64,000 nucleotides of DNA from Escherichia coli (GCF_001677475.2 NZ_CP015229.1), one strand, 5' to 3'; numbered from the stretch's first letter, positions 1,780-26,654 are shown. Notes: generated by a model from the letters alone, not told the origin. Program-made: numbers and translations.

Positions 1780-3279
1780 GTGACGCTCAATACTTCTCAG
1801 GTCAGTTACTATATGACTCAGCGTAAGAAAGGTATAACTCAGCATATCTCGGCCATGAAGGCTGGTATCTCAGTCCGTTCTGGTCGTCGGATCGAAAAAG
1901 GAGAGTGGGCAAAAAACAGTGTTCGGCACTGGCGCACACGCAAAGATCCTCTGGAAGCTGTGTGGGACAGCATGCTTGTTCCTCTGTTGAAAGAGAGGCC
2001 GGCTCTGACACCAACAACTCTACTGGAGATGCTACAGGATAAATATCCCGGCCAGTACCCCAACAGCCTTCGAAGAACAATGCAACGGCGGGTTCGCGAA
2101 TGGAAACTACAGTATGGTACAGAGCAGGAGGTCATGTTCCGCCAGCAACATCAGCCCGGCCTGCGAGGCCTGTCGGACTTTACTGAACTGAAAGGTGTAG
2201 TTGTCACCATCGCCGGTAAGTTGTTGGCGCATAAGTTGTATCACTTCCGTCTGGAATGGAGCCACTGGAGCTGGATGCGGGTTGTTCTGGGTGGTGAGAG
2301 CTTCTCTGCTCTGGCTGAAGGCCTGCAGGAAGCCCTCGGACAACTGGGCGGAGTGCCGGTAGAACATAAAACGGACAGCCTGAGGGCAGCATGGAAACAA
2401 CAGGGCGAAGATGGACGCCGCGAGCTGACTGAGCGTTATGCTACTCTCTGTCAGCACTACGGAATGCAGGGCGTACACAATAATGCCGGTCGGGGCCACG
2501 AAAATGGCTCGGTTGAAAGTGCCCACGGACATCTGAAAAGGCGTATCTGTCAGGCGCTGATACTGCGGGGCAGTAACGACTTCAGCACCATAGAAGAATA
2601 TCAGGCCTTCATCACTCAGCAGGTTATGCGGCACAACCGTAACAATCAGGATCTGGTCAAGGAAGAACGTCTTCATCTGAAACCGCTGCCGCTTCGTCGC
2701 AGTGCTGACTATGATGAGCTGACTGTGAGGGTTAGTCGCAGCAGTACCATCAATGTGAAGCACGTCGTCTACAGCGTACCTTCCCGGCTTGTAGGTCAAC
2801 TGTTACGGGTCAGGTTATGGGACGATCGTCTGAGCTGTTACGTTGGCAGCAGCGAGGTCATGAGCTGCCCTCGCGTCAGACCAGAAAAAGGGAAGACGCG
2901 GGCCCGTCGTATCGACTTCCGACATGTGATCGACAGTCTGGCAAAAAAGCCCGGTGCGTTCTGCCATGCAACGCTGAGAAATGACATCCTGCCGGACGAT
3001 GAATGGCGGAGGCTGTGGCGTCGCTTATGTAATCATCTGGAGCCCGATATGGCAGGAAGGCTGATGGTACATGCCCTGAAACTGGCTGCAGGATACGACG
3101 ATATCTCAGTCGTGGCAAAAGGTATGGAGCAGATGCTGAATACCCCGGGAAACGTGGATCTGCACCGGCTGATGCGCTTCCTGGGTATAAAAGAAAAGGC
3201 GTTGCCGGTAGTCAATGTGATACAGCATAACCTGAGCAGTTATGAGCAACTACTGCGTGGCAAGGGAGGTTCGCAGTGA
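1780..3279 (+). CDS. istA: IS21-family transposase IstA
   Basis: 499-aa ORF directly upstream of and overlapping the IstB-like gene; GTG start at 1780, alternative ATG at 1813. Confidence 0.75.
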   Translation: MTLNTSQVSYYMTQRKKGITQHISAMKAGISVRSGRRIEKGEWAKNSVRHWRTRKDPLEAVWDSMLVPLLKERPALTPTTLLEMLQDKYPGQYPNSLRRTMQRRVREWKLQYGTEQEVMFRQQHQPGLRGLSDFTELKGVVVTIAGKLLAHKLYHFRLEWSHWSWMRVVLGGESFSALAEGLQEALGQLGGVPVEHKTDSLRAAWKQQGEDGRRELTERYATLCQHYGMQGVHNNAGRGHENGSVESAHGHLKRRICQALILRGSNDFSTIEEYQAFITQQVMRHNRNNQDLVKEERLHLKPLPLRRSADYDELTVRVSRSSTINVKHVVYSVPSRLVGQLLRVRLWDDRLSCYVGSSEVMSCPRVRPEKGKTRARRIDFRHVIDSLAKKPGAFCHATLRNDILPDDEWRRLWRRLCNHLEPDMAGRLMVHALKLAAGYDDISVVAKGMEQMLNTPGNVDLHRLMRFLGIKEKALPVVNVIQHNLSSYEQLLRGKGGSQ

Positions 3280-4031
3280 GCAATATCCATCACCTTGAAC
3301 ATAGCCTGCGTAAACTACGCCTGACACGAGTTGGAGCTGAATGGCACGCTCTGGAAAAACGAGCGCTGGCAGAAGGCTGGACACCATCGCGCTATCTTCT
3401 GACGCTATGCAATGAAGAACTCCTGTGGCGCGAGAGTGAAAAACTGCGTCGTTATAAAAAGGAGGCCCGGTTGCCAGTTGCCAAAACGCTGAGCGAATAC
3501 GACTTCAGTCAGGTGCCGGAACTGAATGGAGCTCAGTTCCGGCAACTCTGTGAAACGACAGACTGGGTTGATGCAGGAGAAAACGTTCTGCTGTTCGGAG
3601 CCAGCGGGTTGGGGAAAAGCCATCTGGCGGCAGCGATCGTGGATGGCGTAGTAGGTCAGGGCTACCGGGCCCGGTTCTACAGCGCAGGAGAGCTGTTGCA
3701 GGAACTACGTAAAGCCAGAGCTCAGTTGAAACTGAATGAGCTGCTACTGAAACTGGATCGCTACCGGGTGATAGTGGTGGATGATCTTGGCTATGTCAAA
3801 CGCGATAGTGCCGAAACGGGTGTGCTGTTCGAGTTAATAGCGCATCGCTATGAACGTGGGAGCCTGGTGATAACCAGTAACCATCCGTTCAGCATGTGGG
3901 GCAGCATCTTCGTGGATGAGACTATGGCGGTGGCTGCGGCAGACAGGCTGATCCATCACGGATATATGTTCGAACTGAAAGGGGAAAGCTACAGGAAAAA
4001 GACAGCGAAGGCAGTAACAAGCGCGACTTGA
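3276..4031 (+). CDS. istB: IS21-family helper ATPase IstB
   Basis: 251-aa ORF with P-loop GASGLGKSHLAAA and a DnaA/IstB-like AAA+ layout (Walker B-like VIVVDDLGY). Confidence 0.85.
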   Translation: MSNIHHLEHSLRKLRLTRVGAEWHALEKRALAEGWTPSRYLLTLCNEELLWRESEKLRRYKKEARLPVAKTLSEYDFSQVPELNGAQFRQLCETTDWVDAGENVLLFGASGLGKSHLAAAIVDGVVGQGYRARFYSAGELLQELRKARAQLKLNELLLKLDRYRVIVVDDLGYVKRDSAETGVLFELIAHRYERGSLVITSNHPFSMWGSIFVDETMAVAAADRLIHHGYMFELKGESYRKKTAKAVTSAT

Positions 4032-4616
4032 TGTCGCCCTGAAGGGTGCGGCCAGTATAGTTGGCGCGAGTCGGCAAAACTAGTTGACGTCTAATACCCG
4101 TGCGTTTGGCAAACTTCAGCACATTGCTTCCGGTGCGGCTTCCGGCGTGACTACCGATGCGATCATTAAACTGATTTACACCCTGCGCAAGGCGCACCGC
4201 AGCGGCGCGAAGTTCATGATGAACAACAGCAGCCTGTTTGTCATTCGTCTGCTGAAGGATAACGACGGAAATTATCTGTGGCGTCCGGGTATTGAGCTGG
4301 GGCAGCCTTCTTCACTGGCGGGGTATGGCATCGTTGAGAATGAGCAGATGCCGGATATTGCTGCCGATGCAAAAGCTATTGCGTTTGGTAACTTCAAACG
4401 CGGCTATACCATCGTTGACCGCATCGGTACCCGTATCCTGCGCGATCCGTACACCAACAAACCGTTTGTGGGCTTTTATACCACCAAACGAACCGGCGGT
4501 ATGCTGGTGGATTCTCAGGCGATTAAGCTGATGAAGATCGGTGCTGCAACCCGCCAGAAAGCCGCTGAGTAATGCAGTTTTTTATGCCCGCACAGTATTG
4601 CGGGCAGGAGTTTCTG

Positions 4617-4934
4617 ATGGCAGCAATAGTGGAAAAACTCAGGGCGCAGTGCCGTATTGATACAGATGATGCAACTGATGATGAGTTACTGATGCTGTAT
4701 TTCCGGGCTGCCTGCCGCAAGGCAGAAAATTTTATCAACCGTAAGCTTTATGAGGAGACGGTGCCGGAGGGGGATCCAGAAGGGGTGCTTATAGCTGATG
4801 ATGTTTTGCTGGCGCTTATGTTGCTGGTCGGACACTGGTACGAAAACAGGGAAAATTCCTCAGATGTCAGCAAGGCACCAATCCCGTTTGGTTTTTCTTC
4901 TCTGCTGGAGCCTTATCGTTTTATTCCTTTGTAG
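4617..4934 (+). CDS. Head-tail connector / DNA-packaging protein (phage gp6-like)
   Basis: ORF 4572..4934 with probable start at ATG 4617 after AGGAG; small acidic protein directly downstream of the capsid gene. Confidence 0.6.
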   Translation: MAAIVEKLRAQCRIDTDDATDDELLMLYFRAACRKAENFINRKLYEETVPEGDPEGVLIADDVLLALMLLVGHWYENRENSSDVSKAPIPFGFSSLLEPYRFIPL

Positions 4935-4942
4935 GAGGAACC

Positions 4943-5281
4943 ATGCAGGCGGGCAGATTACGTGATCGCGTAATTATTCTGAATGTCACCACCGCCCGCT
5001 CTCCGTCAGGGCATCCGGTGGAGACGGTGACGGAGGGAGCTACCGTATGGGCAGAAGTTAAGGGTATCAGCGGGAGGGAGATAATCTCAGGCGGAGCAGA
5101 AACCGCTCAGGCTACGGTCAGAGTCTGGATGAGATTCCGGCGCGATGTGACAGCGACTTCACGTCTGAAAGTGCTGACCGGTGCATTTAAAGGGGCAATT
5201 CTGGGTATAGAAGGTCCACCAATACCGGATGCACGCGCTACCCGGCTTGAAATACTCTGCAGCCTGAAGGGGAATGTGTGA
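4943..5281 (+). CDS. Head-tail adaptor / head closure protein
   Basis: 112-aa ORF following the gp6-like gene with RBS AGGAGG; conserved position in HK97-like head modules. Confidence 0.6.
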   Translation: MQAGRLRDRVIILNVTTARSPSGHPVETVTEGATVWAEVKGISGREIISGGAETAQATVRVWMRFRRDVTATSRLKVLTGAFKGAILGIEGPPIPDARATRLEILCSLKGNV

Positions 5282-5727
5282 TGGATTTCAGTCTTGATTT
5301 TTCAGGTCTGGCGGATATTGCACGGGATCTGGAGACGCTCAGCAGGGCAGAAAACAATAAGGTACTGCGCGATGCCACCCGTGCCGGTGCTGAAGTTATG
5401 CGGGATGCAGTTGCTGAACGTGCGCCGGAGCGAACCGGGAAACTGAAGAAAAATGTGGTTGTTCTCACTCAGCGTTCAAAGCGTCGGGGGGAAATTATCT
5501 CGGGTGTCCACATTCGTGGACGGAACCCGCGAACCGGAAACAGTGATAACAGCATGAAAGCCAGCGATCCCCGAAATGCGTTTTACTGGCGCTTTGTGGA
5601 GCTGGGAACGATAAACATGCCCGCGCATCCGTTCATTCGCCCGGCATTCGACACGACAGAGGAACTGGCAGCACAGATTGCCATACAGCGAATGAATCAG
5701 GCTATTGATGAGGTCTTAAGTAAATGA
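5278..5727 (+). CDS. HK97 gp10-like phage protein (tail completion / neck)
   Basis: 149-aa ORF with ATGA start/stop overlap to the upstream gene; N-terminal MMDFSLDFSGLADI resembles the HK97 gp10 family. Confidence 0.6.
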   Translation: MMDFSLDFSGLADIARDLETLSRAENNKVLRDATRAGAEVMRDAVAERAPERTGKLKKNVVVLTQRSKRRGEIISGVHIRGRNPRTGNSDNSMKASDPRNAFYWRFVELGTINMPAHPFIRPAFDTTEELAAQIAIQRMNQAIDEVLSK

Positions 5728-6068
5728 GGGAGACCGCACTGTATTCCCTGCTGTCTCAACTGGCCGGAGGACAGGTTTATCCTTATGTGGTCCCGCTGAC
5801 GGAGGGAAAGCCTGCGGTATCTCCGCCGTGGCTGGTGTTTTCTGTGGTGTCTGACACGGCGTCTGATGTGCTTGATGGTCAGGCTGAATCAAGAATTACC
5901 GTGCAGATCGATGTCTGGGCAACAGTACCTGATGACGCAGATGATATCCGTGAGCAGGCGCTTGATGCGGTAAGGCAACTTGCACCCTCCGTTATTTCTA
6001 AAACTCAGGGTTATGATCCTGATTCCCGTCTGAGCAGAGCCACGCTTGAATTTCAGGTAATAGCCTGA
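5724..6068 (+). CDS. Tail terminator / DUF3168-like tail component
   Basis: 114-aa ORF, translationally coupled, located just before the major tail protein gene. Confidence 0.5.
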   Translation: MRETALYSLLSQLAGGQVYPYVVPLTEGKPAVSPPWLVFSVVSDTASDVLDGQAESRITVQIDVWATVPDDADDIREQALDAVRQLAPSVISKTQGYDPDSRLSRATLEFQVIA

Positions 6069-6127
6069 GGTCGTTAATGATTTTACCCACCCGCCGCTGG
6101 CGGGTTTTTTATTTTCAGGAGACGAGT

Positions 6128-6832
6128 ATGTCCTCTAATTTTGAGCGTTCGCAACTGACGAAAATTATGATTTCGTCTGCACCGGTAACAGCAGAAACCT
6201 TGGATTCTGCCAGCTATCTTGGCCTGAGCTGTACAATCAAAGAGGTGCAGTTTACCGCAGGACAAAAGCAGGATATTGATGTCACCACGCTGTGTTCTGT
6301 TGAGCAGGAACATATTAACGGCCTTGGTGCCGCGTCAGAGATTTCCATGTCAGGCAACTTTTACCTCAATGCTGCCCAGAACGCGTTGCGCAGTGCCTAT
6401 GACAATGACACCACGTATGGCTTTAAAGTTATTTTTCCGTCAGGCAACGGATTTACCTTTATGGCAGAGGTGCGTCAGCATACCTGGTCTGCAGGAACCA
6501 ATGGTGTTGTGGCTGCAACGTTTTCCCTGCGCCTGAAAGGTAAACCTGTGCTGACGACAGAGCCGCTGAAAGTGAAGGTCGATTTAAACAGCACGCTGCA
6601 GGTTTCTGCCGGAGCAAAACTCGAAATGGTGGTTGAGGCTGCCGGTGGTGTGCCGCCTTATTCTTATGTCTGGAAGAAAGGTGGTTCTCCTGTTTCCGGA
6701 CAGACGGCGGCAACGTTCAGTAAGGCATCAGCAGCATCCGGTGATGCCGGTGCGTATACCTGCGAGATTTCTGATTCAGCAAGCCCTGTTAACAAGGTGA
6801 CCTCCACTTCCTGCACTGTTACCGTCAGTTAA
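6128..6832 (+). CDS. Major tail protein with C-terminal Ig-like (Big_2-like) domain
   Basis: ORF 6077..6832 with probable start at ATG 6128 after AGGAGACGAG. The C-terminus has an Ig-like decoration domain as in lambda gpV. Confidence 0.7.
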   Translation: MSSNFERSQLTKIMISSAPVTAETLDSASYLGLSCTIKEVQFTAGQKQDIDVTTLCSVEQEHINGLGAASEISMSGNFYLNAAQNALRSAYDNDTTYGFKVIFPSGNGFTFMAEVRQHTWSAGTNGVVAATFSLRLKGKPVLTTEPLKVKVDLNSTLQVSAGAKLEMVVEAAGGVPPYSYVWKKGGSPVSGQTAATFSKASAASGDAGAYTCEISDSASPVNKVTSTSCTVTVS

Positions 6833-7218
6833 TGAGGATAGATGTGATGACTAAAAATATCCGTAATCTGGCACTGGCAACGATGTCGGGGTTTCGTCAT
6901 AAAACCGTTGATGTGCCTGAATGGGAAGGAGCAACGGTTGTGTTACGGGAACCTTCTGCAGAAGCCTGGTTGCGCTGGCAGGAGATCGTTAAAGCCAGGG
7001 AAGATGATACATCGCCATCCGTTGCAGAGCGTGCCCGCCGAAATCTTGAGGCGGACGTTGAACTGTTCATTGATGTTCTGTGTGATACCGGGCTGCAACC
7101 CGTATTTTCAGAGGATGATCGTGAACAGGTGATTGCCGTGTATGGCCCGGTGCATGCCCGACTTCTTCGCCAGTCTCTGGAACTGATCAGTGGTGCCGGA
7201 GAGGTTAAAAAAAAGTAG
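6832..7218 (+). CDS. Tail assembly chaperone (gpG-like)
   Basis: Lies between the major tail and tape measure genes and ends ...GEVKKK* on an A-run. Alternative start ATG 6847 has a better RBS (GAGGA). Confidence 0.75.
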   Translation: MRIDVMTKNIRNLALATMSGFRHKTVDVPEWEGATVVLREPSAEAWLRWQEIVKAREDDTSPSVAERARRNLEADVELFIDVLCDTGLQPVFSEDDREQVIAVYGPVHARLLRQSLELISGAGEVKKK

Positions 7219-7520
7219 CGCTTCCGGGGATGCGTTTTCTGATGATGCTGGCGCTCAGGATGGGGCGCACATTGTCAGAGTTACGCCGGGAAATGTCCGC
7301 ATCAGAAATCATGATGTGGGCAGAATTTGACAGGTTCAGCCCGCTGGGGGACGAACGGGCTGATATCCGGGCTGCCCAGATTGTTTCAGCTGTTTACGGT
7401 GCGCAGGGAGTCAAAGTGCCACTGAATGATGCACTTCTTCAGTGGGAGAAGGAGCAGACAGAAGGTGCCTCAGATCCATTTGCCGGAATGGAAAACGCGC
7501 TTTTAATAGTGTCTCAGTGA
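7209..7520 (+). CDS. Tail assembly chaperone -1 frameshift extension (gpT-like part of the G-T fusion)
   Basis: The -1 frame is open from 7209 through the ORF 7230..7520 and is entered at the slippery heptamer A AAA AAG (7209-7215). Confidence 0.7.
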   Translation, partial: KKVALPGMRFLMMLALRMGRTLSELRREMSASEIMMWAEFDRFSPLGDERADIRAAQIVSAVYGAQGVKVPLNDALLQWEKEQTEGASDPFAGMENALLIVSQ

Positions 7521-7560
7521 GTCAACATAACCGCTTCGGCGGTTTTTTTTCGTCCGGAGA

Positions 7561-10500
7561 ATGAGTGTGGCGACATTACGTGAACTGATTATTAAAATCT
7601 CGGCAAACTCCCGGTCCTTCCAGTCGGAGATCGCCCGGGCTTCGCGTATGGGGCAGGATTACTACCGCACCATGCAGAACGGAGGCCGACAATCCGCTGC
7701 TGCATCACGTGAAATGCGGCGTGCACTGGCAGAAGTGACGGATCAGATAAATACGGCGAAGTCTTCGGCACTGAATATGGCGGGGGCATTTGCCGGGGCT
7801 TTTGCCACCGGACATCTTATTTCCCTTGCTGATGAGTGGAATTCAGTAAATGCCCGTCTGAAACAGGCTACGCAATCCAGTGATGATTTTCAGGCATCAC
7901 AACGTGAATTAATGGCAATCAGCCAGAGAACGGGGACGGCTTTTTCAGATAACGCCAGTCTTTTTGCCCGCTCTGCTGCTTCCATGCGGGAGTATGGCTA
8001 CAGTTCTGAGGAGGTACTGAAAGTCACCGAGGCGATCTCCACGGGCCTGAAATTATCCGGTGCCAGTACAGCAGAAGCCAGTTCGGTGATCACGCAGTTC
8101 AGCCAGGCACTGGCGCAGGGAGTGCTGCGCGGTGAAGAGTTTAACGCCGTGAATGAGAGCGGTGATCGTGTTATTCGTGCGCTGGCTGCGGGAATGGGCG
8201 TTGCCCGTAAGGATCTGAAGGCTATGGCGGATGATGGAAAGCTGACCGCCGATAAGGTTGTTCCTGCGTTGATTAGTCAGCTTGGGGCGTTGCGTGATGA
8301 ATATGCAGCAATGCCTGATACGGTTTCATCCTCTGCAACCAAAGTTGAAAACGCCTTTATGGCCTGGGTTGGTGGTGCGAACGAGGCAAGCGGAGTGACG
8401 AAGACGCTTTCCGGAGTGCTGAATGGTGTTGCAGGCAATATTGATACCGTTGCAACCGCTGCCGGTGCTCTGGTTGCCGTCGGGGTAGCCCGATATTTGG
8501 GCAATATGGCGTCTTCTGCTGGAGCTGCAACTGCCGGATTAATTACCGCAGCCAGAAACGAAGTGGCTCTTGCGGAAGCGCAGCTCCGGGGAACACAGAT
8601 AGCAACAGCCAGGGCGCGTGCGGCGGTTTATCGTGCGCAACAGGCGGTTGCGGCTACCCGTGGTACTGAAAGGCAGGCAGCCGCAGAAGCGAAACTGGCT
8701 GCTGCCCAGGCGTCACTTACCCGTAATATTGCGGCCAGAACAGCAGCACAGACAACGCTGAATACTGTCACGTCAGTGGGGAGTCGTCTGTTAAGTGGGG
8801 CACTGGGGCTGGTTGGTGGTGTGCCGGGGCTTGTCATGCTGGGGGCTGCGGCCTGGTACACGATGTATCAGAATCAGGAGCAGGCCAGAGAATCTGCACG
8901 CCAGTATGCCGCAACAATCGACGAAATTCGCCAGAAAACGTCGGCAATGTCGCTTACTGAAGCGTCAGATAATGAGGAAAAGACGCGACAGGCACTGAAG
9001 GAGCAGAACAGGTTAATTGACGAGCAGAAAAGTAAGATTAAATCCTTACAGGAAAAAATTGCTGGCTATCAGTATGTGCTGGCAAACCCGGGCTGGACAA
9101 CCGATAACGGTTTTATGATTAACCACATGACGTCGGTAAAAACTGTCACAGAAGGGCTTGCAGAAGCAACAAATCAACTGGCAGTTGAACAGTCTCGCCT
9201 CACTCAAATGCAGGGCAAAGCGCAATCCATTCAGGATGTGCTTGCCGGGCTGGAGGAGCGACGGGTGGCGTTGATCCGTCAACAGGCGGCGGAACAAAAT
9301 AAAGCGTATCAGTCCCTGTTGATCATGAATGGGCAGCATACCGAGTTTAATCGTCTTCTCGGGCTTGGTAATGAGTTACTTCAGCAGCGTCAGGGGCTGG
9401 TGAATGTACCATTACGACTGCCACAGGCCACCCTGGATGATAAACAGCAGAATGCGCTGAATAACAGCGAGCGCGAACTGGCTCTGTCCCGCCTGAAGGG
9501 GGAAGCCCGTGAGCGTGCCCGACTGGGTTATGCTGCGGATGATCTCGGCTTTGTGGGAGAGGCGTATCAGACAGCCAGACAGAATTATATCAATAACTCA
9601 CTGGATGCCTGGCGAAATAACCAGGCAAATAAACCCAAAGCGCATAAAAAGACCGAAGCGGAAAAAACAGAAGATATTTATAAACGGCTGATTAAACAGC
9701 AGAAAGAGCAGATAGCACTGGCAGGGCAGAATACTGAACTGGCTAAGATGAAATATCAGGTCAGTCAGGGCGAATTATCAACCCTGTCAGAAGCGCAGAA
9801 AAAAACGCTTTTGCAGAATGCAGCACTCATCGACCAGAAAAAGATTCGTGAGCAGCTTGCTGCGTATGAGAGCAGTCTGGCGGACAGTAATGCCAGTGCC
9901 CGGGCATCTGACGAAGCGCAGTTGCTGGGATATGGTGAAGGCTCACGGATGCGTGAACGACTCCAGGAAATGTGGAGTATCCGGCAGACGTTTGAGCAGA
10001 AAAATAACGAGCTGCTGAGACAGTATCAGGCCGGAGAAATTGAAGAAGCCCTGTGGAAACAGGAGAAAGAACTGAATAAAAAATATCTGGAAGAGCGTCT
10101 CGGCGATCAGCAGGATTATTATGCAAAGGCTGATGCTTTACGCAGTAACTGGAATGCCGGACTCCAGGAGGGACTGACCAACTGGGCAGACAGTGCCACC
10201 GATTATGCTTCACAGGCGGCAGATGCTGTCGTTTCCACGATGGACGGGCTGGTATCAAATATTTCCGATGCACTGGCCGGAAATGTTGTGGACTGGAGAA
10301 ACTGGGGGAGTTCAATTCTCCAGGAAGTTTCAAAAATTCTGATGAACGCTGCCATCGTTAACGGGCTGAAGTCACTTTCCAAAAGCATGTCCGGTGCCGG
10401 AGGATGGCTTGGTACGGTCGGCGACTGGCTTTCCGGTGCAGTGGCAAACGCAAAAGGTGGTGTTTATACATCGGCAAATCTGAGTGCTTACAGTAACACC

Positions 10501-10806
10501 ATTGTGGATACCCCGACGTATTTTGCTTTTGCGAAAGGTGCCGGGCTGATGGGCGAGGCAGGGCCTGAAGCTATCATGCCACTGACTCGGGCAGCGGACG
10601 GCTCTCTTGGAGTCAGAGCCATTGGCAATGTGAATGGTGGCGGTGGATTTGTTTATTCTCCCGTGTATCACATCAGTATTCAGAATAAAGGGAGCAATGG
10701 CGAGATAGATACGCAGTCAGCCAGGGGGCTGGTGGATCTGATCGACAGCAGGGTTGTGTCAATTATGCAGTCATCACGTCGGGACGGAGGATTATGCAGT
10801 GCCTGA
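7561..10806 (+). CDS. Tail tape measure protein
   Basis: 1081-aa ORF directly after G/GT. Ala/Gln-rich, coiled-coil-like, with a Gly-rich C-terminal region. Confidence 0.9.
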   Translation: MSVATLRELIIKISANSRSFQSEIARASRMGQDYYRTMQNGGRQSAAASREMRRALAEVTDQINTAKSSALNMAGAFAGAFATGHLISLADEWNSVNARLKQATQSSDDFQASQRELMAISQRTGTAFSDNASLFARSAASMREYGYSSEEVLKVTEAISTGLKLSGASTAEASSVITQFSQALAQGVLRGEEFNAVNESGDRVIRALAAGMGVARKDLKAMADDGKLTADKVVPALISQLGALRDEYAAMPDTVSSSATKVENAFMAWVGGANEASGVTKTLSGVLNGVAGNIDTVATAAGALVAVGVARYLGNMASSAGAATAGLITAARNEVALAEAQLRGTQIATARARAAVYRAQQAVAATRGTERQAAAEAKLAAAQASLTRNIAARTAAQTTLNTVTSVGSRLLSGALGLVGGVPGLVMLGAAAWYTMYQNQEQARESARQYAATIDEIRQKTSAMSLTEASDNEEKTRQALKEQNRLIDEQKSKIKSLQEKIAGYQYVLANPGWTTDNGFMINHMTSVKTVTEGLAEATNQLAVEQSRLTQMQGKAQSIQDVLAGLEERRVALIRQQAAEQNKAYQSLLIMNGQHTEFNRLLGLGNELLQQRQGLVNVPLRLPQATLDDKQQNALNNSERELALSRLKGEARERARLGYAADDLGFVGEAYQTARQNYINNSLDAWRNNQANKPKAHKKTEAEKTEDIYKRLIKQQKEQIALAGQNTELAKMKYQVSQGELSTLSEAQKKTLLQNAALIDQKKIREQLAAYESSLADSNASARASDEAQLLGYGEGSRMRERLQEMWSIRQTFEQKNNELLRQYQAGEIEEALWKQEKELNKKYLEERLGDQQDYYAKADALRSNWNAGLQEGLTNWADSATDYASQAADAVVSTMDGLVSNISDALAGNVVDWRNWGSSILQEVSKILMNAAIVNGLKSLSKSMSGAGGWLGTVGDWLSGAVANAKGGVYTSANLSAYSNTIVDTPTYFAFAKGAGLMGEAGPEAIMPLTRAADGSLGVRAIGNVNGGGGFVYSPVYHISIQNKGSNGEIDTQSARGLVDLIDSRVVSIMQSSRRDGGLCSA

Positions 10807-11140
10807 GTCTGAAGTTTTTAACTGGATCCCCCGCGAGGGGATGGAGACGACACGAAAGCCATCTGTTATTACGGTAAAGTTCGGTGACGGATATGAACAG
10901 CGACGGGCTGGTGGTCTGAATGCAGATCTGAAAACGTTTAAACCGGTATTTCGTGTCACGGATGAATATTCCCGTGCCGCGCTGGACAGTTTTTTATCCC
11001 GTCATGCCGGGATGCGTGCTTTTTTGTGGCGTCCGCCAAAATATAACAGGACCGTCCGGGTTGTCTGCAGGGAGTGGAGTATTTCGGATAATGCCATGTA
11101 TACCGATTTTAACTGTACCTTTGAAGAGGTCACTCACTGA
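10754..11140 (+). CDS. Minor tail protein (lambda gpM-like)
   Basis: Shares motifs with lambda M (VKFGDGYEQR, FLWRPP). The true start may be GTG 10799, which would avoid the 50-bp overlap with the tape measure gene. Confidence 0.8.
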   Translation: MCQLCSHHVGTEDYAVPESEVFNWIPREGMETTRKPSVITVKFGDGYEQRRAGGLNADLKTFKPVFRVTDEYSRAALDSFLSRHAGMRAFLWRPPKYNRTVRVVCREWSISDNAMYTDFNCTFEEVTH

Positions 11141-11838
11141 TGCAGGATATACAGCAGGAAACACTCAATGAGTGCACTAAATCGGAGCAATCCGCGCTGG
11201 TCGTGCTCTGGGAAGTCGATCTGACGGAGGTCGGCGGAGATCGTTATTTCTTCTGTAATGAGCAGAACGAAAAAGGTGAACCAGTCACCTGGCAGGGGCG
11301 GCAGTATCAGGCGTACCCCATTCAGGGGAGCGGCTTTGAGATGAACGGTAAGGGCAGCAGCGCACGTCCCACACTTAAGGTATCTAACCTGCACGGCATG
11401 GTCACCGGTATGGCGGAAGACCTGCAGAGTCTGGTCGGCGGAACGGTGGTCAGGCGTAAGGTTTACGCCCGTTTTCTGGATGCGGTGAACTTCGTCAACG
11501 GAAACAGTGACGCCGATCCGGAGCAGGAGGTGATCAGCCGCTGGCGCATCGAGCAGTGCAGCGAACTGAGCGCTGTCAGTGCCTCTTTTGTACTGTCCAC
11601 ACCGACTGAAACGGATGGTGCTGTTTTTCCGGGGCGCATCATGCTGGCTAATACCTGCACCTGGACCTATCGCGGTGATGAGTGCGGTTATAACGGTCCG
11701 GCGGTCGCGGATGAATATGATCAGCCGACGTCCGATATCACGAAGGATAAATGCAGCAAATGCCTGAGTGGCTGTAAGTTTCGCAATAACCTCGGCAACT
11801 TTGGCGGTTACCTTTCCATCAACAAACTTTCGCAGTAA
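11140..11838 (+). CDS. Minor tail protein (lambda gpL-like)
   Basis: 232-aa ORF with a C-terminal Cys cluster (CSKCLSGC); position and size match lambda L. Confidence 0.85.
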   Translation: MQDIQQETLNECTKSEQSALVVLWEVDLTEVGGDRYFFCNEQNEKGEPVTWQGRQYQAYPIQGSGFEMNGKGSSARPTLKVSNLHGMVTGMAEDLQSLVGGTVVRRKVYARFLDAVNFVNGNSDADPEQEVISRWRIEQCSELSAVSASFVLSTPTETDGAVFPGRIMLANTCTWTYRGDECGYNGPAVADEYDQPTSDITKDKCSKCLSGCKFRNNLGNFGGYLSINKLSQ

Positions 11839-11842
11839 TCCC

Positions 11843-12586
11843 ATGACAGAGACAGAATCAGCGATTCTGGCGCACGCCCGGCGATGTGCGCCAGCGGAGT
11901 CGTGCGGCTTCGTGGTGAGAACGCCGGAAGGGGAAAGATATTTTCCCTGCGTGAATATCTCCGGTGAGCCGGAGGAGTATTTCCGGATGGCTCCGGAGGA
12001 CTGGCTGCGGGCAGAAATGCAGGGTGAGATTATGGCGCTGGTCCACAGCCACCCCGGTGGTCTGCCCTGGCTGAGTGAGGCCGACCGGCGGTTGCAGGTG
12101 CAGGGTGATTTGCCATGGTGGCTGGTCTGCCGGAGAGCGATTCACAAGTTCCGCTGTGTGCCGCATCTTACCGGGCGGCGCTTTGAGCACGGGGTGACGG
12201 ACTGTTACACGCTGTTCCGGGATGCTTACCATCTGGCGGGGATTGAGATGCCGGATTTTCATCGTGAGGATGACTGGTGGCGTCACGGTCAGAATCTCTA
12301 TCTGGATAATCTGGAGGCCACGGGGCTGTATCAGGTGCCGCTGTCAGCGGCGCAGCCGGGCGATGTGCTGCTGTGCTGTTTTGGTTCATCGGTACCGAAT
12401 CATGCAGCCATTTACTGCGGTGATGGCGAGCTGCTGCACCATATTCCTGAACAACTGAGCAAACGAGAGAGGTATACCGACAAATGGCAGCGACGCACAC
12501 ACTCCCTCTGGCGTCACCGGGCATGGCACGCATCTGCCTTTACGGGGATTTACAACGATTTGGCCGCCGCATCGACCTTCGTGTGA
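11843..12586 (+). CDS. Tail assembly protein K (lambda gpK-like; MPN/JAB plus NlpC/P60 domains)
   Basis: ORF 11768..12586 with start at ATG 11843 (MTETES). Contains a JAMM-like HSHPGG motif. Confidence 0.85.
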   Translation: MTETESAILAHARRCAPAESCGFVVRTPEGERYFPCVNISGEPEEYFRMAPEDWLRAEMQGEIMALVHSHPGGLPWLSEADRRLQVQGDLPWWLVCRRAIHKFRCVPHLTGRRFEHGVTDCYTLFRDAYHLAGIEMPDFHREDDWWRHGQNLYLDNLEATGLYQVPLSAAQPGDVLLCCFGSSVPNHAAIYCGDGELLHHIPEQLSKRERYTDKWQRRTHSLWRHRAWHASAFTGIYNDLAAASTFV

Positions 12587-13131
12587 AAACGGGGGCTGAA
12601 GCCATCCGGGCACTGGCCACGCAGATCCCCGCATTTCGACAGAAACTGAATGAGGGCTGGTATCAGGTGCGCATTGCAGGGCGTGATGCAGGTGAAACCG
12701 AATTATCTGCCCGTCTTAATGAGCCGCTGGCAAATGGTGCCGTGATCCACATCGTACCGCGTCTGGCGGGTGCCAAAAGTGGCGGTATTTTTCAGGCGGT
12801 GCTGGGGGCGGCGCTGATTGCGGTGGCATGGTGGAACCCTGTGGGCTGGCTGGGTGCCGCGGCTGTATCGGGCATGTATGCGGCAGGGGCCAGTATGATC
12901 CTGGGCGGAGTGGCGCAGATGCTGGCACCGAAAGCCAGGACGCCCACGGCAGCAAGTACAGATAACGGCAAACAGAACACCTATTTCTCCTCACTGGATA
13001 ACATGGTTGCCCAGGGCAATGTTCTGCCCGTTCTGTACGGTGAAATGCGCGTGGGGTCGCGGGTGGTCTCTCAGGAGATCAGCACGGCAGACGAAGGGGA
13101 TGGTGGTCAGGTTGTGGTGATTGGTCGCTGA
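12484..13131 (+). CDS. Tail assembly protein I (lambda gpI-like)
   Basis: 215-aa ORF overlapping the end of K, with a hydrophobic Gly/Ala-rich C-terminal half as in gpI. Alternative start ATG 12523. Confidence 0.8.
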   Translation: MAATHTLPLASPGMARICLYGDLQRFGRRIDLRVKTGAEAIRALATQIPAFRQKLNEGWYQVRIAGRDAGETELSARLNEPLANGAVIHIVPRLAGAKSGGIFQAVLGAALIAVAWWNPVGWLGAAAVSGMYAAGASMILGGVAQMLAPKARTPTAASTDNGKQNTYFSSLDNMVAQGNVLPVLYGEMRVGSRVVSQEISTADEGDGGQVVVIGR

Positions 13132-13190
13132 TGAAAAACGTTTATGTGAAACCGCCTCCGGGCGGTTTTGTCGTTTATGGAGCGTGAGGA

Positions 13191-16100
13191 ATGGGTAAAG
13201 GCAGCAGTAAGGGGCATACTCCGCGCGAAGCGAAGGACAACCTGAAGTCCACGCAGTTGCTGAGTGTGATCGATGCCATCAGCGAAGGGCCGGTTGAAGG
13301 TCCGGTGGATGGATTAAAAAGCGTGCTGCTGAACAGTACGCCAGTGCTGGACAGTGAGGGGAATACCAATATCTCCGGCGTCACGGTGGTGTTCCGGGCC
13401 GGTGAGCAGGAGCAGACACCGCCGGAGGGATTTGAATCCTCTGGCTCCGAGACGGTGCTGGGTACGGAAGTGAAATACGACACGCCGATCACCCGGACCA
13501 TCACGTCGGCAAACATTGACCGACTGCGTTTTACCTTCGGCGTGCAGGCACTGGTGGAAACCACCTCAAAGGGGGACAGGAATCCGTCGGAAGTCCGCCT
13601 GCTGGTTCAGATCCAGCGTAATGGTGGCTGGGTGACGGAAAAAGACATCACCATTAAGGGCAAAACCACCTCGCAGTATCTGGCCTCGGTGGTGGTGGGT
13701 AACCTGCCGCCGCGCCCGTTCAATATACGGATGCGCAGGATGACGCCGGACAGCACCACAGACCAGCTGCAGAACAAAACGCTCTGGTCGTCATACACCG
13801 AAATCATCGATGTGAAACAGTGCTACCCGAACACGGCACTGGTCGGCGTACAGGTGGATTCGGAGCAGTTCGGCAGCCAGCAGGTGAGCCGTAATTATCA
13901 TCTGCGCGGGCGCATTCTGCAGGTGCCGTCGAACTATAACCCGCAGACGCGGCAATACAGCGGTATCTGGGACGGAACGTTTAAACCGGCATACAGCAAC
14001 AACATGGCCTGGTGTCTGTGGGATATGCTGACCCATCCGCGCTACGGCATGGGGAAACGTCTTGGTGCGGCGGATGTGGACAAATGGGCGCTGTATGTCA
14101 TCGGCCAGCATTGCGATCAGTCGGTGCCGGACGGTTTTGGCGGCACGGAGCCGCGCATCACCTGTAATGCGTACCTGACCACACAGCGCAAGGCGTGGGA
14201 TGTGCTCAGTGATTTCTGCTCTGCGATGCGCTGTATGCCGGTATGGAACGGGCAGACGCTGACGTTCGTGCAGGACCGACCGTCGGATAAGGTGTGGACC
14301 TATAACCGCAGTAATGTGGTGATGCCGGATGATGGTGCGCCGTTCCGCTACAGCTTCAGCGCCCTGAAGGACCGCCATAATGCCGTTGAGGTGAACTGGA
14401 TTGACCCGAATAACGGCTGGGAGACGGCGACAGAGCTTGTGGAGGACACGCAGGCCATTCTCCGTTACGGTCGTAACGTCACGAAGATGGATGCCTTTGG
14501 CTGTACCAGTCGGGGGCAGGCACACCGCGCCGGGCTGTGGCTGATTAAAACAGAACTGCTGGAAACGCAGACCGTGGATTTCAGCGTCGGCGCAGAAGGG
14601 CTTCGCCATGTGCCGGGCGATGTTATTGAAATCTGCGATGATGACTATGCCGGTATCAGCACCGGCGGGCGCGTGCTGGCGGTGAACAGCCAGACCCGGA
14701 CGCTGACGCTCGACCGTGAAATCACGCTGCCATCCGCCGGCACCACGCTGATAAGCCTGGTTGACGGAAGTGGAAATCCGGTCAGCGTGGAGGTTCAGTC
14801 CGTCACCGATGGCGTGAAGGTAAAAGTGAGCCGTGTTCCTGACGGCGTTGCAGAATACAGTGTGTGGGGGCTGAAGTTGCCGACGCTGCGCCAGCGCCTG
14901 TTCCGCTGTGTGAGTATCCGTGAGAATGACGACGGCACGTATGCCATCACCGCCGTGCAGCATGTACCGGAAAAAGAGGCCATCGTGGATAACGGGGCGC
15001 ACTTTGACGGCGACCAGAGCGGCACGGTGAATGGTGTCACGCCGCCCGCGGTGCAGCACCTGACCGCCGAAGTCACCGCAGACAGCGGGGAATATCAGGT
15101 GCTGGCGCGCTGGGACACGCCGAAGGTGGTCAAGGGTGTGAGCTTCCTGCTTCGCCTGACCGTGGCAGCGGATGACGGCAGTGAGCGGCTGGTCAGCACA
15201 GCCCGGACGACGGAAACCACATACCGCTTCAGGCAGCTGGCGCCAGGAAATTACAGTCTGACGGTCCGGGCGGTAAATGCCCGGGGACAGCAGGGGGATC
15301 CGGCGTCGGTATCGTTCCGGATTAACGCCCCGGCAGCGCCTGCCACAATTGAACTGATACCGGGGTATTTTCAGATAACGGCGGTCCCGCGTCTTGCGGT
15401 GTATGACCCGACGGTGCAGTTTGAGTTCTGGTTCTCGGAAAATCAGATTACGGATATCCGGCAGGTTGAAACCACAGCCCGCTATCTCGGTACGGCGATG
15501 TACTGGACAGCTGCCAGTATTAATATCAGGCCGGGCCATGATTATTACTTTTATATCCGCAGTGTGAACATCGTCGGTAAATCAGCGTTTGTGGAAGCTG
15601 TTGGCCAGCCGGTTAATGATGCTGAGGTGTATCTCAATTTTTTTGAAGGGAAAATAAACAGCACCCTGCTGGGACAGGAGCTGAACGATCGTATTAATGC
15701 CTCGGCATTGCGCAGTGAAGTTGAGCAACTGGAGGATGAGATCAATCAGCAGATAGAGAGTGATATTGCTGAAGTGACCCAAAAAATCGGGGAGACAGAA
15801 AACAGCCTCACACAGCTGGTTGCGAAAAAAAATGATGAGCTGTCACTGGGTATATCACAGGTGAGCCAGAGAGTGGATAACGTCAGCAGCGAACTCACGC
15901 AGACGGTCAGTCAGAGTAATGAGGAGAATGCACGCCAGATAGCGCAGGTTCGCCAGTATGTGGATCAAAAAAGCAGTGAAATCATGACGACAACGGACCA
16001 AAAGCTGGGAGATCAGGAGGCCACCATCCAGCAGATACAAAAGGTTCAGACGGACACCAGTAATAACCTGAACAGTATGTGGGCCGTGAAACTGCAGCAG

Positions 16101-16445
16101 ATGCAGGATGGTCGCCTTTATATTGCGGGTATCGGTGCCGGTATTGAGAATACCCCTGACGGTATGCAGAGCCAGGTGCTGCTGGCGGCAGACAGGATTG
16201 CGATGGTTAATCCTGCGAATGGTAATACAACACCCTTGTTTGTGGCTCAGGGGGATCAGCTGTTCCTGAATGAGGTTTTCATGTCCAGGGCGACGATTGA
16301 TTTTGCGGAAATTACGGGGGTTCTTCGTTCTTCGGGATTTGAAGTCAGGGGACAGGGAGGCTGGGATCTGAGCCGGGAACTGAACTGCTTCAGGGTCGAT
16401 GATGAAAACAATGTCATTCGGGTGAGAATGGGCAGGTTACTCTGA
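13191..16445 (+). CDS. Host specificity / tail tip protein J (central tail fibre)
   Basis: 1084-aa ORF after K and I. Conserved gpJ-like N-terminal two-thirds, fibronectin-like middle region, and a divergent coiled-coil C-terminus. Confidence 0.9.
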
Positions 16446-16454
16446 GGAGCGAAT

Positions 16455-16826
16455 ATGTCATTGCAATATGGCTGGCAAATCATGGATGCAACGGGCAGGG
16501 TGGTTACGGATACGTCTGCAATTATGTGCAGACGTTTATTCTCATATCATGTTCCGATCATTGAAGCACTGGCATCAAATATCCCGTGGTCAGTGACATT
16601 TGGTGTCAGTTTTAACAATGGAACCCCATTCACACATTGTGTGACACGGAAGGGGATTACGGTGCCTTCCGGCAGGGTATGGTATCCGGTGGCACCGGAT
16701 ATTATCATCAACGGTAACAGCGTCACCTTAACCTATACAGCAAGACATGTTTCATATCCTGATGATTTGGGGTATCTCCTGGCTGTTGGCGGTGTGGATG
16801 TTCATTGTGGGGTTTACCACCGATGA
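16455..16826 (+). CDS. Hypothetical phage protein (unknown; paralogous to the N-terminus of the next gene)
   Basis: 123-aa ORF with RBS GAGGAG upstream. Visibly AT-richer than J. Confidence 0.5.
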   Translation: MSLQYGWQIMDATGRVVTDTSAIMCRRLFSYHVPIIEALASNIPWSVTFGVSFNNGTPFTHCVTRKGITVPSGRVWYPVAPDIIINGNSVTLTYTARHVSYPDDLGYLLAVGGVDVHCGVYHR

Positions 16827-17614
16827 GCGGTTATGGCATTCAGCTAATTAATGACTATGGACTGACAGTGGCAGATGCGGAAGATGTGAATTATGTTTTG
16901 CGAAGTGCCGGTCAGTTCAGTAATGGTCATTTTATCTCCGGCGGGAACACGACGAGCGCAATCAGTCTGATAACAACCGGGATGAACAGTCCTTTATTGT
17001 TTCTGAAGATGAATACAAATAATTCGAGGCTGACACAAAAAGCCGGGGTCAATAAGCTGTCCCCTGATTTTGTTAATCCCGGAACATATATATCGGTGAC
17101 AAGTATAGACGTGTTTAAATGGTGGAATATAAATATTGGCACGGTTCAGTATTATATTTTTGACAAGTGGATACCGCCGGAGCGAAGTTCATACGGTATG
17201 CAACTGTTTGATGGTTCAGGCGGAATTATATTTGATTCCGGGTGGTATTTTCTGAAATTACGGGATGTGAAATGGCTTGAACCGCAATATCCAAACCATT
17301 CAGGGCATGAAAGCGGTAGTAACTGGAGTAATGTCGGGCATGTTTCCGATGATGTCAATAACACAGCATTATCAATGCCTCTGGGCAGGGGCTGGATTGA
17401 GTCATCCTTACAGGGTGGATATTACTATAATGAGTGTTGTCATCTTGACGGTAACGGTAATCTCTATATATCCATAATACCGACAGGTGTTTATCTCGAT
17501 ATATCACCGACAGGCGGCTGGGTTGGCTCAATGAAAACCCAGGTCATGGTTGCGGATGTATCCGGCTTACCGACGAATTATAACCCTGTGGAGATAAGGA
17601 ACGTTAACGGTTAA
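16823..17614 (+). CDS. Hypothetical phage protein (unknown; internally repeated YG-Q-L motif)
   Basis: ORF 16805..17614; the probable start ATG 16823 overlaps the upstream stop (ATGA). Followed by a strong intrinsic terminator. Confidence 0.5.
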   Translation: MSGYGIQLINDYGLTVADAEDVNYVLRSAGQFSNGHFISGGNTTSAISLITTGMNSPLLFLKMNTNNSRLTQKAGVNKLSPDFVNPGTYISVTSIDVFKWWNINIGTVQYYIFDKWIPPERSSYGMQLFDGSGGIIFDSGWYFLKLRDVKWLEPQYPNHSGHESGSNWSNVGHVSDDVNNTALSMPLGRGWIESSLQGGYYYNECCHLDGNGNLYISIIPTGVYLDISPTGGWVGSMKTQVMVADVSGLPTNYNPVEIRNVNG

Positions 17615-17665
17615 GTGCTGTAACGAAATCACGGCAAAATGAAACAGAAAATCTGAATGTAATCA

Positions 17666-17694
17666 CAGCCCGCCGGAACCGGCGGGCTTTTTTG
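17666..17694 (+). terminator. Rho-independent terminator (GC stem-loop plus T-run)
   Basis: GCCCGCCGG-AACC-GGCGGGC followed by TTTTTTG. Confidence 0.7.
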
Positions 17695-17704
17695 TGGGGT
17701 GAAT

Positions 17705-19801: not shown

Positions 19802-20400
19802 TGAGGAAATCAGGCATGAAAATCAGAGCGGTGAAAGGCATCAGAAACGCACATTATCTTGAAAATGGTGCGATTGACTGCGAGGTGTTATTTGAAGGTG
19901 AAACGGAGTTCGCCATGTATACCGCCATACAGGATGATACAGCCCCGACAGGCCAGCACATCTGGCAGGAGCTGCAAAGCGGGAAATGGGGCGAAATCGT
20001 CCCGTTCACCGTCACGCCTGAACTTATTGCAGCGGCAAAGGATGCCAAAAGGCGGGAGATTGAGGCATGGCGCGACAGTCAGGAAAACGTTGAGTTTATT
20101 TTCACGTTTGATGGTCGTCGTTTTGATGGTGGAAAAACCTCGCAGTCACGCCTTGCGCCCGTGGTTGCAACAGCACAGGCCGGACTGCTTCCGGAGGGTT
20201 TTTTCTGGACTGATGCGGATAATAACAACGTCGTACTGACCAGGGAGAAACTTATTGCGCTGAACGATGCCATGATGGTGGCCATGGTGGCGGAGGGCTT
20301 TAAAATCCACGAACGTCAGCGGGAGATGAAAGAGGAGCTGAGTAGCCTCGAGGATTTACACTCAATCAGGAAGTTGCTCGTTAACTCAGAAAAAATTTGA
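19801..20400 (+). CDS. Putative tail fibre assembly protein (atypical Tfa-like)
   Basis: 199-aa ORF overlapping the stf stop and last gene before the tRNA. Assigned by position; it does not closely resemble canonical lambda Tfa. Confidence 0.45.
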   Translation: MRKSGMKIRAVKGIRNAHYLENGAIDCEVLFEGETEFAMYTAIQDDTAPTGQHIWQELQSGKWGEIVPFTVTPELIAAAKDAKRREIEAWRDSQENVEFIFTFDGRRFDGGKTSQSRLAPVVATAQAGLLPEGFFWTDADNNNVVLTREKLIALNDAMMVAMVAEGFKIHERQREMKEELSSLEDLHSIRKLLVNSEKI

Positions 20401-20508: not shown

Positions 20509-20530
20509 GGGGCTACCATTTGGTAACCCC
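20509..20530 (-). terminator. Hairpin plus T-run downstream of serT (probable tRNA terminator)
   Basis: On the minus strand GGGGTTACCA-AA-TGGTAGCCCC is followed by TTTGCTTTTT. Confidence 0.5.
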
Positions 20531-20539
20531 TTGATTATT

Positions 20540-20627
20540 TGGCGGAAGCGCAGAGATTCGAACTCTGGAACCCTTTCGGGTCGCCGGTTTTCAAGACCGG
20601 TGCCTTCAACCGCTCGGCCACACTTCC
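20540..20627 (-). tRNA. serT: tRNA-Ser (anticodon UGA)
   Basis: Reverse complement reads GGAAGTGTGGCCGAGCGGTTGAAGGCACCGGTCTTGAAAACCGGCGACCCGAAAGGGTTCCAGAGTTCGAATCTCTGCGCTTCCGCCA: 88 nt with long variable arm and encoded CCA. Confidence 0.95.
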
Positions 20628-25667: not shown

Positions 25668-26521
25668 GCGAAACTTTTTTCCATCTGCTGGGGCCAGGAA
25701 CGCAACCGAACGATGACAGTTTCAGCATGAATCCACTGCCGATCACCTGTCAGGTGAATGATGAACCGAGTATGGCGGCCCTGGAACAATGTGCTCACAG
25801 CCCGCAGGTGATTGCGCTGTTAAACGAGTTACAACATCAACTAAGTCAACGCCAGCCGCCGTTGGGCGAGGTGCTGGCAGTCGATCTGTTAAATCTCAAC
25901 GCCGACGATCGTCACTTTATCAATACGCTTCTCGGGGAAGGGGAAGTGTCAGTGCGCATTCAGCAGGCTGACGACAGTGAAAGTGAAATACAGGAGGCGA
26001 TCTTCTGCGGATTATGGCGGGTGCGCAGACGTCGCGGCGACAAGTTGCTGGAGGACAAACTGGAGGCTGGCTGCGCGCCGCTGGCGTTGTGGCAGGCGGC
26101 AACGCAAAATCTCTTGCCGACAGATTCGCTGTTACCGCCGCCCATTGATGGCCTGATGAATGGCCTACCGTTGGCGCATGAGTTACTGGCACATGTACGT
26201 AACCCCGACGCGCAGCCGCACAGCATTAATCTGACGCAATTACCCATCAGCGAGGCTGATCGGCTTTTTCTCTCACGTCTCTGTGGGCCGGGAAATATTC
26301 AGATTCGTACCATTGGCTATGGCGAGAGCTATATCAACGCCACGGGGTTACGCCATGTCTGGCATTTACGCTGCACGGACACCTTAAAAGGCCCGTTACT
26401 TGAGAGTTATGAAATCTGCCCGATACCGGAAGTGGTGCTGGCAGCGCCAGAAGATTTGGTCGACTCTGCGCAGCGGCTTAGTGAGGTATGTCAGTGGCTG
26501 GCGGGAGGGGCACCGTCGTAA
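25664..26521 (+). CDS. hyaF: Hydrogenase-1 operon protein HyaF
   Basis: Start ATG 25664 ([10 protein letters not shown]); 285 aa. Confidence 0.9.
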
Positions 26522-26654
26522 AAAGACGGTAAGTATCGCTTTCAGGCTTATGAATATCGCAATCGGCGAATACCTCTGGTCGTAGAGTTTCAGGATAAAG
26601 AGGGAGATCTACCATTAACGGGTTATTTTTCTCTCTTCGCCTACAGGAGTGCGC

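Follow-up and report, generated by a model that had tools for sequence, protein, structure and literature searches.

Can transcription terminators stand between the tail genes of a phage late operon and, if they do, what would their role be? This question is raised by a 64,000-nucleotide (nt) stretch of DNA from Escherichia coli (GCF_001677475.2 NZ_CP015229.1; hereafter, the window), in which a lambdoid prophage carries GC-rich hairpins between its tail genes. The original prediction had placed three such stem-loops, each followed by a T-run, before the major tail, tape measure and J genes of the late structural operon. All three were found on the + strand within 1-2 nt of the predicted positions, and the PHROGs profile searches, from which our gene assignments were taken, confirmed the identities of the three downstream genes. 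A fourth hairpin lies directly ahead of the side tail fibre gene. We named these elements h1 to h4 and regard them as genuine intrinsic (Rho-independent) terminator modules, as predicted from their sequence. As for their role, we see about an even chance that the hairpins insulate the operon against non-antiterminated transcription and serve as terminators of moron slots (a moron is an extra open reading frame (ORF) with its own promoter between conserved genes). This reading goes beyond those of the original prediction, namely leaky attenuators, RNA stability or processing, which match the speculation in PMC8022706. The elements are as follows.

6089-6105, + strand: h1 stem-loop, ACCCGCC-GCT-GGCGGGT; 7 base pairs (bp), 6 of them GC; folding free energy (dG) -12.0 kcal/mol
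6106-6115, + strand: h1 U-tract, TTTTTATTTT (T6 A T4)
7529-7544, + strand: h2 stem-loop, AACCGC-TTCG-GCGGTT; 6 bp with a cUUCGg loop; dG -8.0
7543-7550, + strand: h2 U-tract, T8 with the stem T counted in
13150-13167, extendable to 13148-13169, + strand: h3 stem-loop, AACCGCC-TCCG-GGCGGTT; 7-9 bp; dG -12.3, or -15.3 with the A/U extension
13148-13178, + strand: whole h3 motif, with the interrupted U-tract TTTTGTCGTTTAT
17667-17688, motif to 17698, + strand: h4 stem-loop, AGCCCGCCG-GAAC-CGGCGGGCT, plus TTTTTGTGG (T5); dG -19, the strongest hairpin

Terminator features of the hairpins

The folding energies of h1 to h3, whose calculation had been suggested as a check of the original prediction, are those given above. 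Their GC-rich stems measure 5 bp or more, their loops 3-8 nt, and a U-tract follows directly 3' of the stem. They lie on the sense strand in non-coding sequence downstream of a stop codon, they occur above chance frequency, and their reverse complements possess no T-tails. The stem-loops of h1 and h3 are the minimum free energy (MFE) fold in context, and the same holds for nearly all orthologs. Owing to its interrupted T-tract, h3 has the weakest terminator signature among h1 to h3. When the region 5900-18000 was searched with the Rfam 15 covariance models, no match fell on the hairpins, either at the gathering threshold or at E <= 1.

The first three hairpins occupy the sole sizeable gaps of a lambda/HK97-type tail operon. 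These gaps (59 nt between U and V, 46 nt between T and H and 59 nt between I and J) hold only the hairpin, the U-tract and a Shine-Dalgarno sequence. The arrangement, which h4 shares in its own intercistronic gap, runs from the stop codon through 8-20 nt to the GC hairpin, and then over the U-tract and the Shine-Dalgarno sequence to the start codon. The distance from the upstream stop codon is 20 nt for h1 (tail terminator gene), 8 nt for h2 (T reading frame) and 18 nt for h3 (I gene), and the distance to the downstream start codon is 22 nt (major tail ATG), 22 nt (tape measure GTG) and 23 nt (J ATG), respectively.

The T-runs also bear on whether these gaps are coding. Among the relatives of the prophage, the U/V gap is 59 or 60 nt because the length of the T-run differs by 1 nt. 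Such 1-nt indels would shift the frame of an ORF that starts from the ATG at 6077. Therefore, the major tail gene starts at 6128 and the gaps are non-coding. In the intact relative PhiR49_2 (L088), the deposited major tail coding sequence (CDS; 25948-26703) begins at the ATG equivalent to 6077 of the window and thus crosses h1. The T-run polymorphism and the AGGAG at the second ATG indicate that the real start of this CDS should be 51 nt downstream.

We also considered whether h2 exerts translational control, since the loop and the 3' arm of h2 pair with the GGAG of the tape measure gene in the MFE fold of the T/H gap of the window. Because this alternative fold is absent in JLK-2012, HK97, OS31, Kp4872-1 and L064 (a close relative), we rejected translational control as a conserved mechanism.

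Frequency of terminator-like sites

Under the scan rule, a site needed a perfect stem of 5 or more bp with dG <= -7, together with a T-tail score (d'Aubenton-Carafa) >= 2.9. By this rule, the region 4084-20400 contains five sites on the + strand and none on the - strand, and 200 dinucleotide-preserving shuffles gave a mean of 0.38 sites with a maximum of 3. Four of the five sites are held by the intergenic sequence, which amounts to about 250 nt in all. The fifth (16513-16534) lies within the ORF 16455-16826 and is present in only one of 80 relatives; it was set aside as probable chance. When the hits were summed over six late operons, there were 35 in the sense and 10 in the antisense orientation.

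A generic terminator scan detected h1 and h2, and h3 was missed only because a greedy G-T extension of the stem took up the T-tract. The d'Aubenton-Carafa d-score varies with the chosen stem boundaries (for h3, from -3.8 to about +10), and the score was used qualitatively only. Internal promoters 3' of the hairpins were considered as well and rejected, since the scan gave 10 sites versus 15.0 +/- 3.9 in shuffles. One weak promoter match (9/12) is located at 7570-7598.

Conservation in close relatives

For comparison over a short distance, we used 80 IMG/VR loci with a major tail protein at least 97% identical. h1 is present in 78 of the 80 loci. h2 is present in 74, and a further four possess AACCGC-AGAA-GCGGTT; in all 78 loci that reach this point, the tape measure gene is immediately preceded by a terminator. 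h3 is found in all of the approximately 39 loci that reach it, with an invariant stem and a loop of TCCG, TGCG, TCAG or CCCG. In these loci, none of the 12 stem columns of h3 is variable versus 13 of the 47 others (p = 0.035, weak support). The corresponding stem-versus-flank result for h2 is inflated by non-homologous moron flanks.

In one locus (L078, approximately 16920-17850), a duplication of about 800 bp has brought the 3' end of I, h3 and the first 60 or so J codons into two copies. The presence of two h3 copies suggests that recombination took place at or near the hairpin.

Conservation in more distant phages

Seven lineages, with protein identities as low as 35-66%, have hairpins at these junctions. 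The window was compared with JLK-2012/Stx phages, HK97/HK544, N15, lambda, Klebsiella phage Kp4872-1 and Serratia phage OS31. The same junctions are occupied in these phages and in ES18, although some of the hairpins at equivalent positions are non-homologous (for example, JLK-2012 I/J and the HK97 hairpin before H).

The I-J gap of lambda carries h3 nearly base for base: ACCGCC-TGCG-GGCGGT at 15465-15480, with a TGCG loop where the window has TCCG. The lambda lom-stf hairpin (19612-19633) is the ortholog of h4 with one G-C to G-U change, and additional hairpins occur at D/E, E/FI and J/lom. In contrast, only 7 nt separate U from V in lambda, and T overlaps H, which is why neither h1 nor h2 is present. 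Likewise, N15 has no U/V or T/H gap and thus lacks both hairpins. At the lambda D/E junction (L081, 6100-6134), the hairpin is followed by T7, the 6-nt spacer ACGGGA and a second T7 right before the E start. This is similar to the hypothetical "Q-dependent terminator" proposed in PMC9388147, which consists of a hairpin, a spacer and a U-tract.

In HK97 and HK544, the U/V hairpin is ACCCGCC-AGAT-GGCGGGT, namely, the stem of h1 with a different loop. Before H, I and J, their hairpins are different ones (the one before H is GACCCGC-TATCAA-GCGGGTT). Their layout matches that of the window: the hairpin, its U-tract and a Shine-Dalgarno sequence lie 16-23 nt ahead of the start codon. In JLK-2012 and the Stx-type phages (approximately 75% DNA identity), h1 and h2 are kept, the former with a larger loop and the latter with the loop TGAG, whereas the hairpins at I/J and J/lom are non-homologous. 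Terminator hairpins are present at U/V and before H in both Kp4872-1 and OS31, with further ones before I and J in the latter.

Two observations were made in OS31 (L087). Identical 16-nt terminators, ACCCGCTCCGGCGGGT plus T7, stand on both sides of gene I. In addition, an IS150 element (IS3 family; 5057-6555) sits exactly in the loop of the U/V terminator hairpin; its junctions (left, ...CCGCCTCCG before the element; right, TCCGGGCGGTTTTTTT after it) suggest a TCCG target duplication.

Many of these sites have been annotated before. The hairpins are unannotated in the lambda RefSeq record. The N15 record contains stem_loops at 15307-15330 (I/J) and 20021-20045 (cor/stf) described as "putative rho-indep. 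transcription terminator", and its annotations of this kind stand at D/E, E/FI, V/G, I/J and cor/stf. HK97 (NC_002167) has a "putative terminator" at 6692-6719 (U/V), 8398-8422 (before H), 13799-13824 (before I) and 15107-15129 (before J), among others. In HK544 (JQ086374), all three junctions are annotated with a "rho-independent terminator", for example at 6645-6670 (U/V) and 8350-8372 (before H). In ES18 (NC_006949), an annotated terminator (13262-13283) adjoins the tape measure gene after three morons, and in phi80 (NC_021190) putative rho-independent terminators are annotated inside the late operon. Orthologous sites are thus annotated in GenBank/RefSeq at these junctions in several phages, and the feature is already known. 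Because HK97, N15, HK544 and ES18 carry the same feature at the same junctions, the finding itself is ordinary.

Phage L (P22-like), ES18 and phi80 also possess predicted intrinsic terminators inside a single-promoter, antiterminated late operon, as is probably the case here. Their virion modules differ from that of the window (phage L is a P22-like podovirus and ES18 has an SPP1-like head), and the junctions are only partly equivalent.

The I/J stem shows covariation. In an alignment of only eight sequences, anchored on the hairpin, 98.2% of the cells of 7 pairs are paired and three pairs show compensatory double changes; 1 of 500 shuffles was as good.

Retention of the U-tracts and messenger RNA stability

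In the lineages compared, hairpins that precede V, H, I or J are followed by U-tracts, except for the non-homologous I/J hairpin of JLK-2012, in which the T-run is interrupted. In contrast, the hairpins after the major capsid and major tail genes of lambda, N15, HK97, Kp4872-1 and OS31 typically have no U-tract, with at most the 4-T run of the HK97 capsid hairpin. Because the U-tracts are conserved at the junctions, termination itself, beyond a stable 3' stem, seems to be under selection at h1 to h3.

This difference bears on the idea that the hairpins act on messenger RNA (mRNA) stability or processing. According to this explanation, RNase E would cleave the late mRNA in the AU-rich tract, the hairpin would shield the upstream segment from 3' exonucleases, and hairpins persisting in the long late mRNA would give groups of cistrons different half-lives. 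The stability of the hairpins and the MFE folds of h1 and h3 are consistent with this idea, and terminator hairpins are known to raise the stability of upstream mRNA (PMC11696848). The hairpins that would suit a stabiliser are, however, those of the relatives that lack a U-tract, or have at most a 4-T run, and stand right after the abundantly expressed major capsid and major tail genes. The window has no hairpins at these positions. Its h1 to h3 instead follow low-copy genes (U, T and I) and retain the U-tract, full at h1 and h2 and interrupted at h3, which a pure stabiliser does not need. Thus, stability as the main function is unlikely, although mRNA stabilisation as a secondary effect is possible.

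Hairpins and gene dosage

The lead idea of the original prediction was that the hairpins are leaky attenuators that set stoichiometry. A fixed fraction of late transcription, even when modified by the antiterminator Q, would stop at each hairpin, and the resulting stepwise dosage (head > V-G-T > H to I > J > fibre) would help to set the ratios of the virion proteins. PMC8022706 names two possibilities, of which partial termination is one. Downstream of V-G-T, the copy number falls roughly in the order in which the hairpins stand, and their strengths are graded: h1 and h4 are strong, h2 is intermediate and h3 is weak. The position of h1, however, is in the wrong direction, since it follows the low-copy U gene and precedes the gene that encodes the most abundant tail protein. 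Furthermore, a few sites that are mostly read through cannot yield differences of at least 100-fold, and lambda and N15 build homologous tails without a gap or hairpin at U/V and T/H. The ratios of the lambda late genes were reportedly attributed to translation initiation by Sampson et al. in 1988. Moreover, polymerase loaded with Q is resistant to terminators by mechanism and would ignore the hairpins (PMC9388147). We therefore consider that stoichiometry-setting attenuation is decidedly unlikely.

Morons at the same junctions

Several relatives carry additional genes precisely where the hairpins stand. In seven IMG/VR relatives (L014, approximately 8945-9392; L018, L046, L050, L057, L068 and L070), a cassette of about 400 bp, which is AT-rich, lies between the T stop codon and an identical h2. 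The L014-type cassette contains a promoter-like TTGACT and an ORF for a 113-amino-acid membrane/zinc-ribbon protein with a CxxC...CxxC motif. An unrelated AT-rich moron is present in L064 (approximately 11394-11843), L065, L073 and L079; it encodes a 123-amino-acid lipoprotein-like ORF and is followed by AACCGC-AGAA-GCGGTT. When the loci with and without a moron are compared, the homology to the window picks up again exactly at the h2 hairpin. The T/H slot is also filled elsewhere, by gp15 in HK97, by an ORF in Kp4872-1 and by gp18-20 in ES18, and in each case a terminator adjoining the tape measure gene follows. The moron gp15 of HK97 confers superinfection exclusion and carries both a promoter and a terminator of its own (PMC3594210). 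Judging from these sequence comparisons, the T/H junction is a recurrent moron hot spot.

The arrangement corresponds to that of known morons (promoter-ORF-terminator; Juhala et al. 2000, reviewed in PMC3594210), in which the 3' terminator adjoins the downstream late gene at the same junctions. An extra ORF with its own promoter is found in L014 and L064. In the gaps of the window, our promoter and ORF scan found no promoter-like site and no ORF, and the gaps are therefore at most empty or vacated moron slots. For example, the HK97 sites before the tape measure gene and J sit 3' of morons (gp15 and gp22/23), whereas the corresponding gaps of the window are empty, at 46 and 59 nt.

These observations raise the question of whether the hairpins are evolutionary by-products, namely scars of lost morons or conserved "boundary sequences" for module recombination, with no present regulatory role in the moron-less window. 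The occurrence of morons at the same junctions and the exact resumption of homology at h2 fit this explanation. So does the U/V hairpin, which is common to the window and JLK-2012 even though the flanking major tail genes differ, and so do the L078 duplication, which is bounded by two h3 copies, and the IS150 element in the loop of the OS31 hairpin. However, the orientation of the hairpins is strictly sense, and their stems and U-tracts are kept, with compensatory changes, at 35-66% protein identity, where neutral scars would have decayed. Moreover, N15 possesses the I/J terminator without a moron, and HK97 has the homologous hairpin with gp22/23 inserted upstream. This suggests that the terminator is the older and more widespread element. 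Thus, we regard the by-product explanation as quite unlikely.

Small RNA (sRNA) genes of the Hfq-binding type, as in the prophages of enterohaemorrhagic E. coli, were also considered and received no support: the described ones are located at the moron site just 3' of the late promoter and not at the tail junctions (PMC4104026).

Proposed insulation against transcription without Q

The reading that we favour is insulation together with moron-slot termination. RNA polymerase that has not acquired the phage Q antiterminator would stop at the hairpins. Such polymerase may arise by leak-through at the late terminator, from spurious internal promoters or from moron promoters. Its termination at the hairpins would, we propose, keep the tail genes silent in the lysogen. 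During lytic growth, no hairpin would form in the RNA exit channel of Q-loaded polymerase, and all sites would be read through to give one long late transcript. The same sites would be pre-insulated slots, and a moron between the upstream stop codon and the terminator could use the terminator as its own 3' end. Secondary effects on the stability of mRNA 3' ends after processing are possible in this scheme.

Published results on related systems agree with these steps. The nozzle formed by Q narrows the RNA exit channel, blocks terminator hairpins and stays on for tens of kilobases (PMC9388147). In lambda, a single Q-dependent late transcript spans 27 genes (PMC10695390). Internal transcription start sites on the coding strand have been mapped in a prophage capsid cluster (PMC7067206), and spurious transcription that could be stopped therefore exists. 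Processive antitermination by lambda Q and N, in the systems of conjugative elements (PMC8191782) and at the Tn916 insulator terminator (PMC11658703) follows the same logic of silence until the antiterminator arrives. In those systems, the terminators have been tested experimentally, whereas those of the window are predicted, and the window does not include the antiterminator gene.

Several points weigh against our proposal. The tail of h3 is just T4 followed by GTCGTTTAT, with a borderline score, and the stem polymorphism of h1 is not depleted among the close relatives. The window begins inside the head genes, so that both the Q gene and the late promoter lie outside it. Our literature search found no 3'-end or read-through data for the sites of the window or their orthologs, those of lambda included, and the supplements of the E. 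coli K-12 3'-end map have no entries for stfR, lomR, stfE and stfQ. In a reporter system, the trailing ribosome repressed terminators, in part or in full, when they stood less than about 27 nt from a stop codon (PMC4824070). Because h1 to h3 are located 8-20 nt past the stop codons, their efficiency on translated transcripts may be low, and the sites may act mainly on poorly translated transcripts. Since lambda and N15 do without h1 and h2, any benefit must be dispensable. Zaworski et al. 2021 (PMC8022706) describe intra-operon terminators as common, with roles that are not known.

A more far-reaching version, to which we give a fairly low chance, is that the sites are conserved "docking slots", insulated in advance, which come before the capture of morons and make it possible. 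They would be gated by ribosomes and overridden by Q, and would drive where lysogenic-conversion genes accumulate in lambdoid tail operons. A promoter-bearing gene that lands past the upstream stop codon but ahead of the hairpin would automatically be terminated before the next essential tail gene. With regard to the ribosome gating, terminators 8-20 nt past a stop codon would fire mainly on untranslated or uncoupled (that is, spurious) transcripts.

Given the existing annotations, the discovery value of the sites is small. If insulation and moron-slot termination are correct, they would explain how 20 kb of virion genes stay silent while accessory genes embedded in them are expressed, and why morons for superinfection exclusion and virulence are concentrated at a small number of tail-gene junctions. 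They would also bear on annotation, as in the PhiR49_2 major tail CDS called through a terminator.

Gene context and the prophage

The genes that flank the hairpins are as follows.

5724-6068, + strand: tail terminator (U-like) gene, PHROG 347/78; upstream of h1
6128-6832, + strand: major tail protein (V-like) gene, PHROG 158, E 2.8e-108; AGGAG Shine-Dalgarno sequence at the 6128 start
6832-7218, + strand: tail assembly chaperone G, PHROG 344/337/14766 (G/T region)
7230-7520, + strand: T extension of the chaperone in the -1 frame, with the slippery sequence A AAA AAG at 7209-7215; upstream of h2
7567-10806, + strand: tape measure protein gene, PHROG 339, E = 0; downstream of h2
Between the tape measure and I genes: M, L and K genes
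12484-13131, + strand: tail assembly protein I-like gene, PHROG 32; upstream of h3
13191-16445, + strand: central tail fibre J gene, PHROG 31, E = 0; downstream of h3

The window carries the right arm of the lambdoid prophage, which ends at a tRNA-Ser gene (20540-20627, - strand). The prophage is not intact. An insertion sequence (IS) element of the IS21 family interrupts the major head gene, and the two head fragments, 933-1691 and 4084-4572, match consecutive parts of phrog_10. Two genes of the element lie between them.

1780-3279: istA
3276-4031: istB, IstB/DnaC-like ATPase gene

Because the IS element splits the capsid gene, this copy of the prophage is defective for capsid production. Since the operon is already broken, the hairpins in the window are inherited features. 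PhiR49_2 is 95.6% identical to the window over 5700-13300, and its h1 to h3 are identical. It possesses cI, cro, replication genes, lysis genes and the same late operon, and an antitermination protein Q is annotated at 14530-14910, upstream of that operon.

A hairpin with a weak T-tail is also present at 582-601 (GGCCGGTTCTTTAACCGGCC, dG -13.2), inside the head maturation protease gene. It is found in approximately 45 relatives and is probably a coincidence of the coding sequence. At the other end of the prophage, the tRNA-Ser(tga) gene (- strand) has its own terminator-like hairpin at 20509-20530. In the host flank, Rfam matches were obtained for the cspA thermoregulator (39430-39852, + strand) and naRNA4 (50536-50613, - strand).

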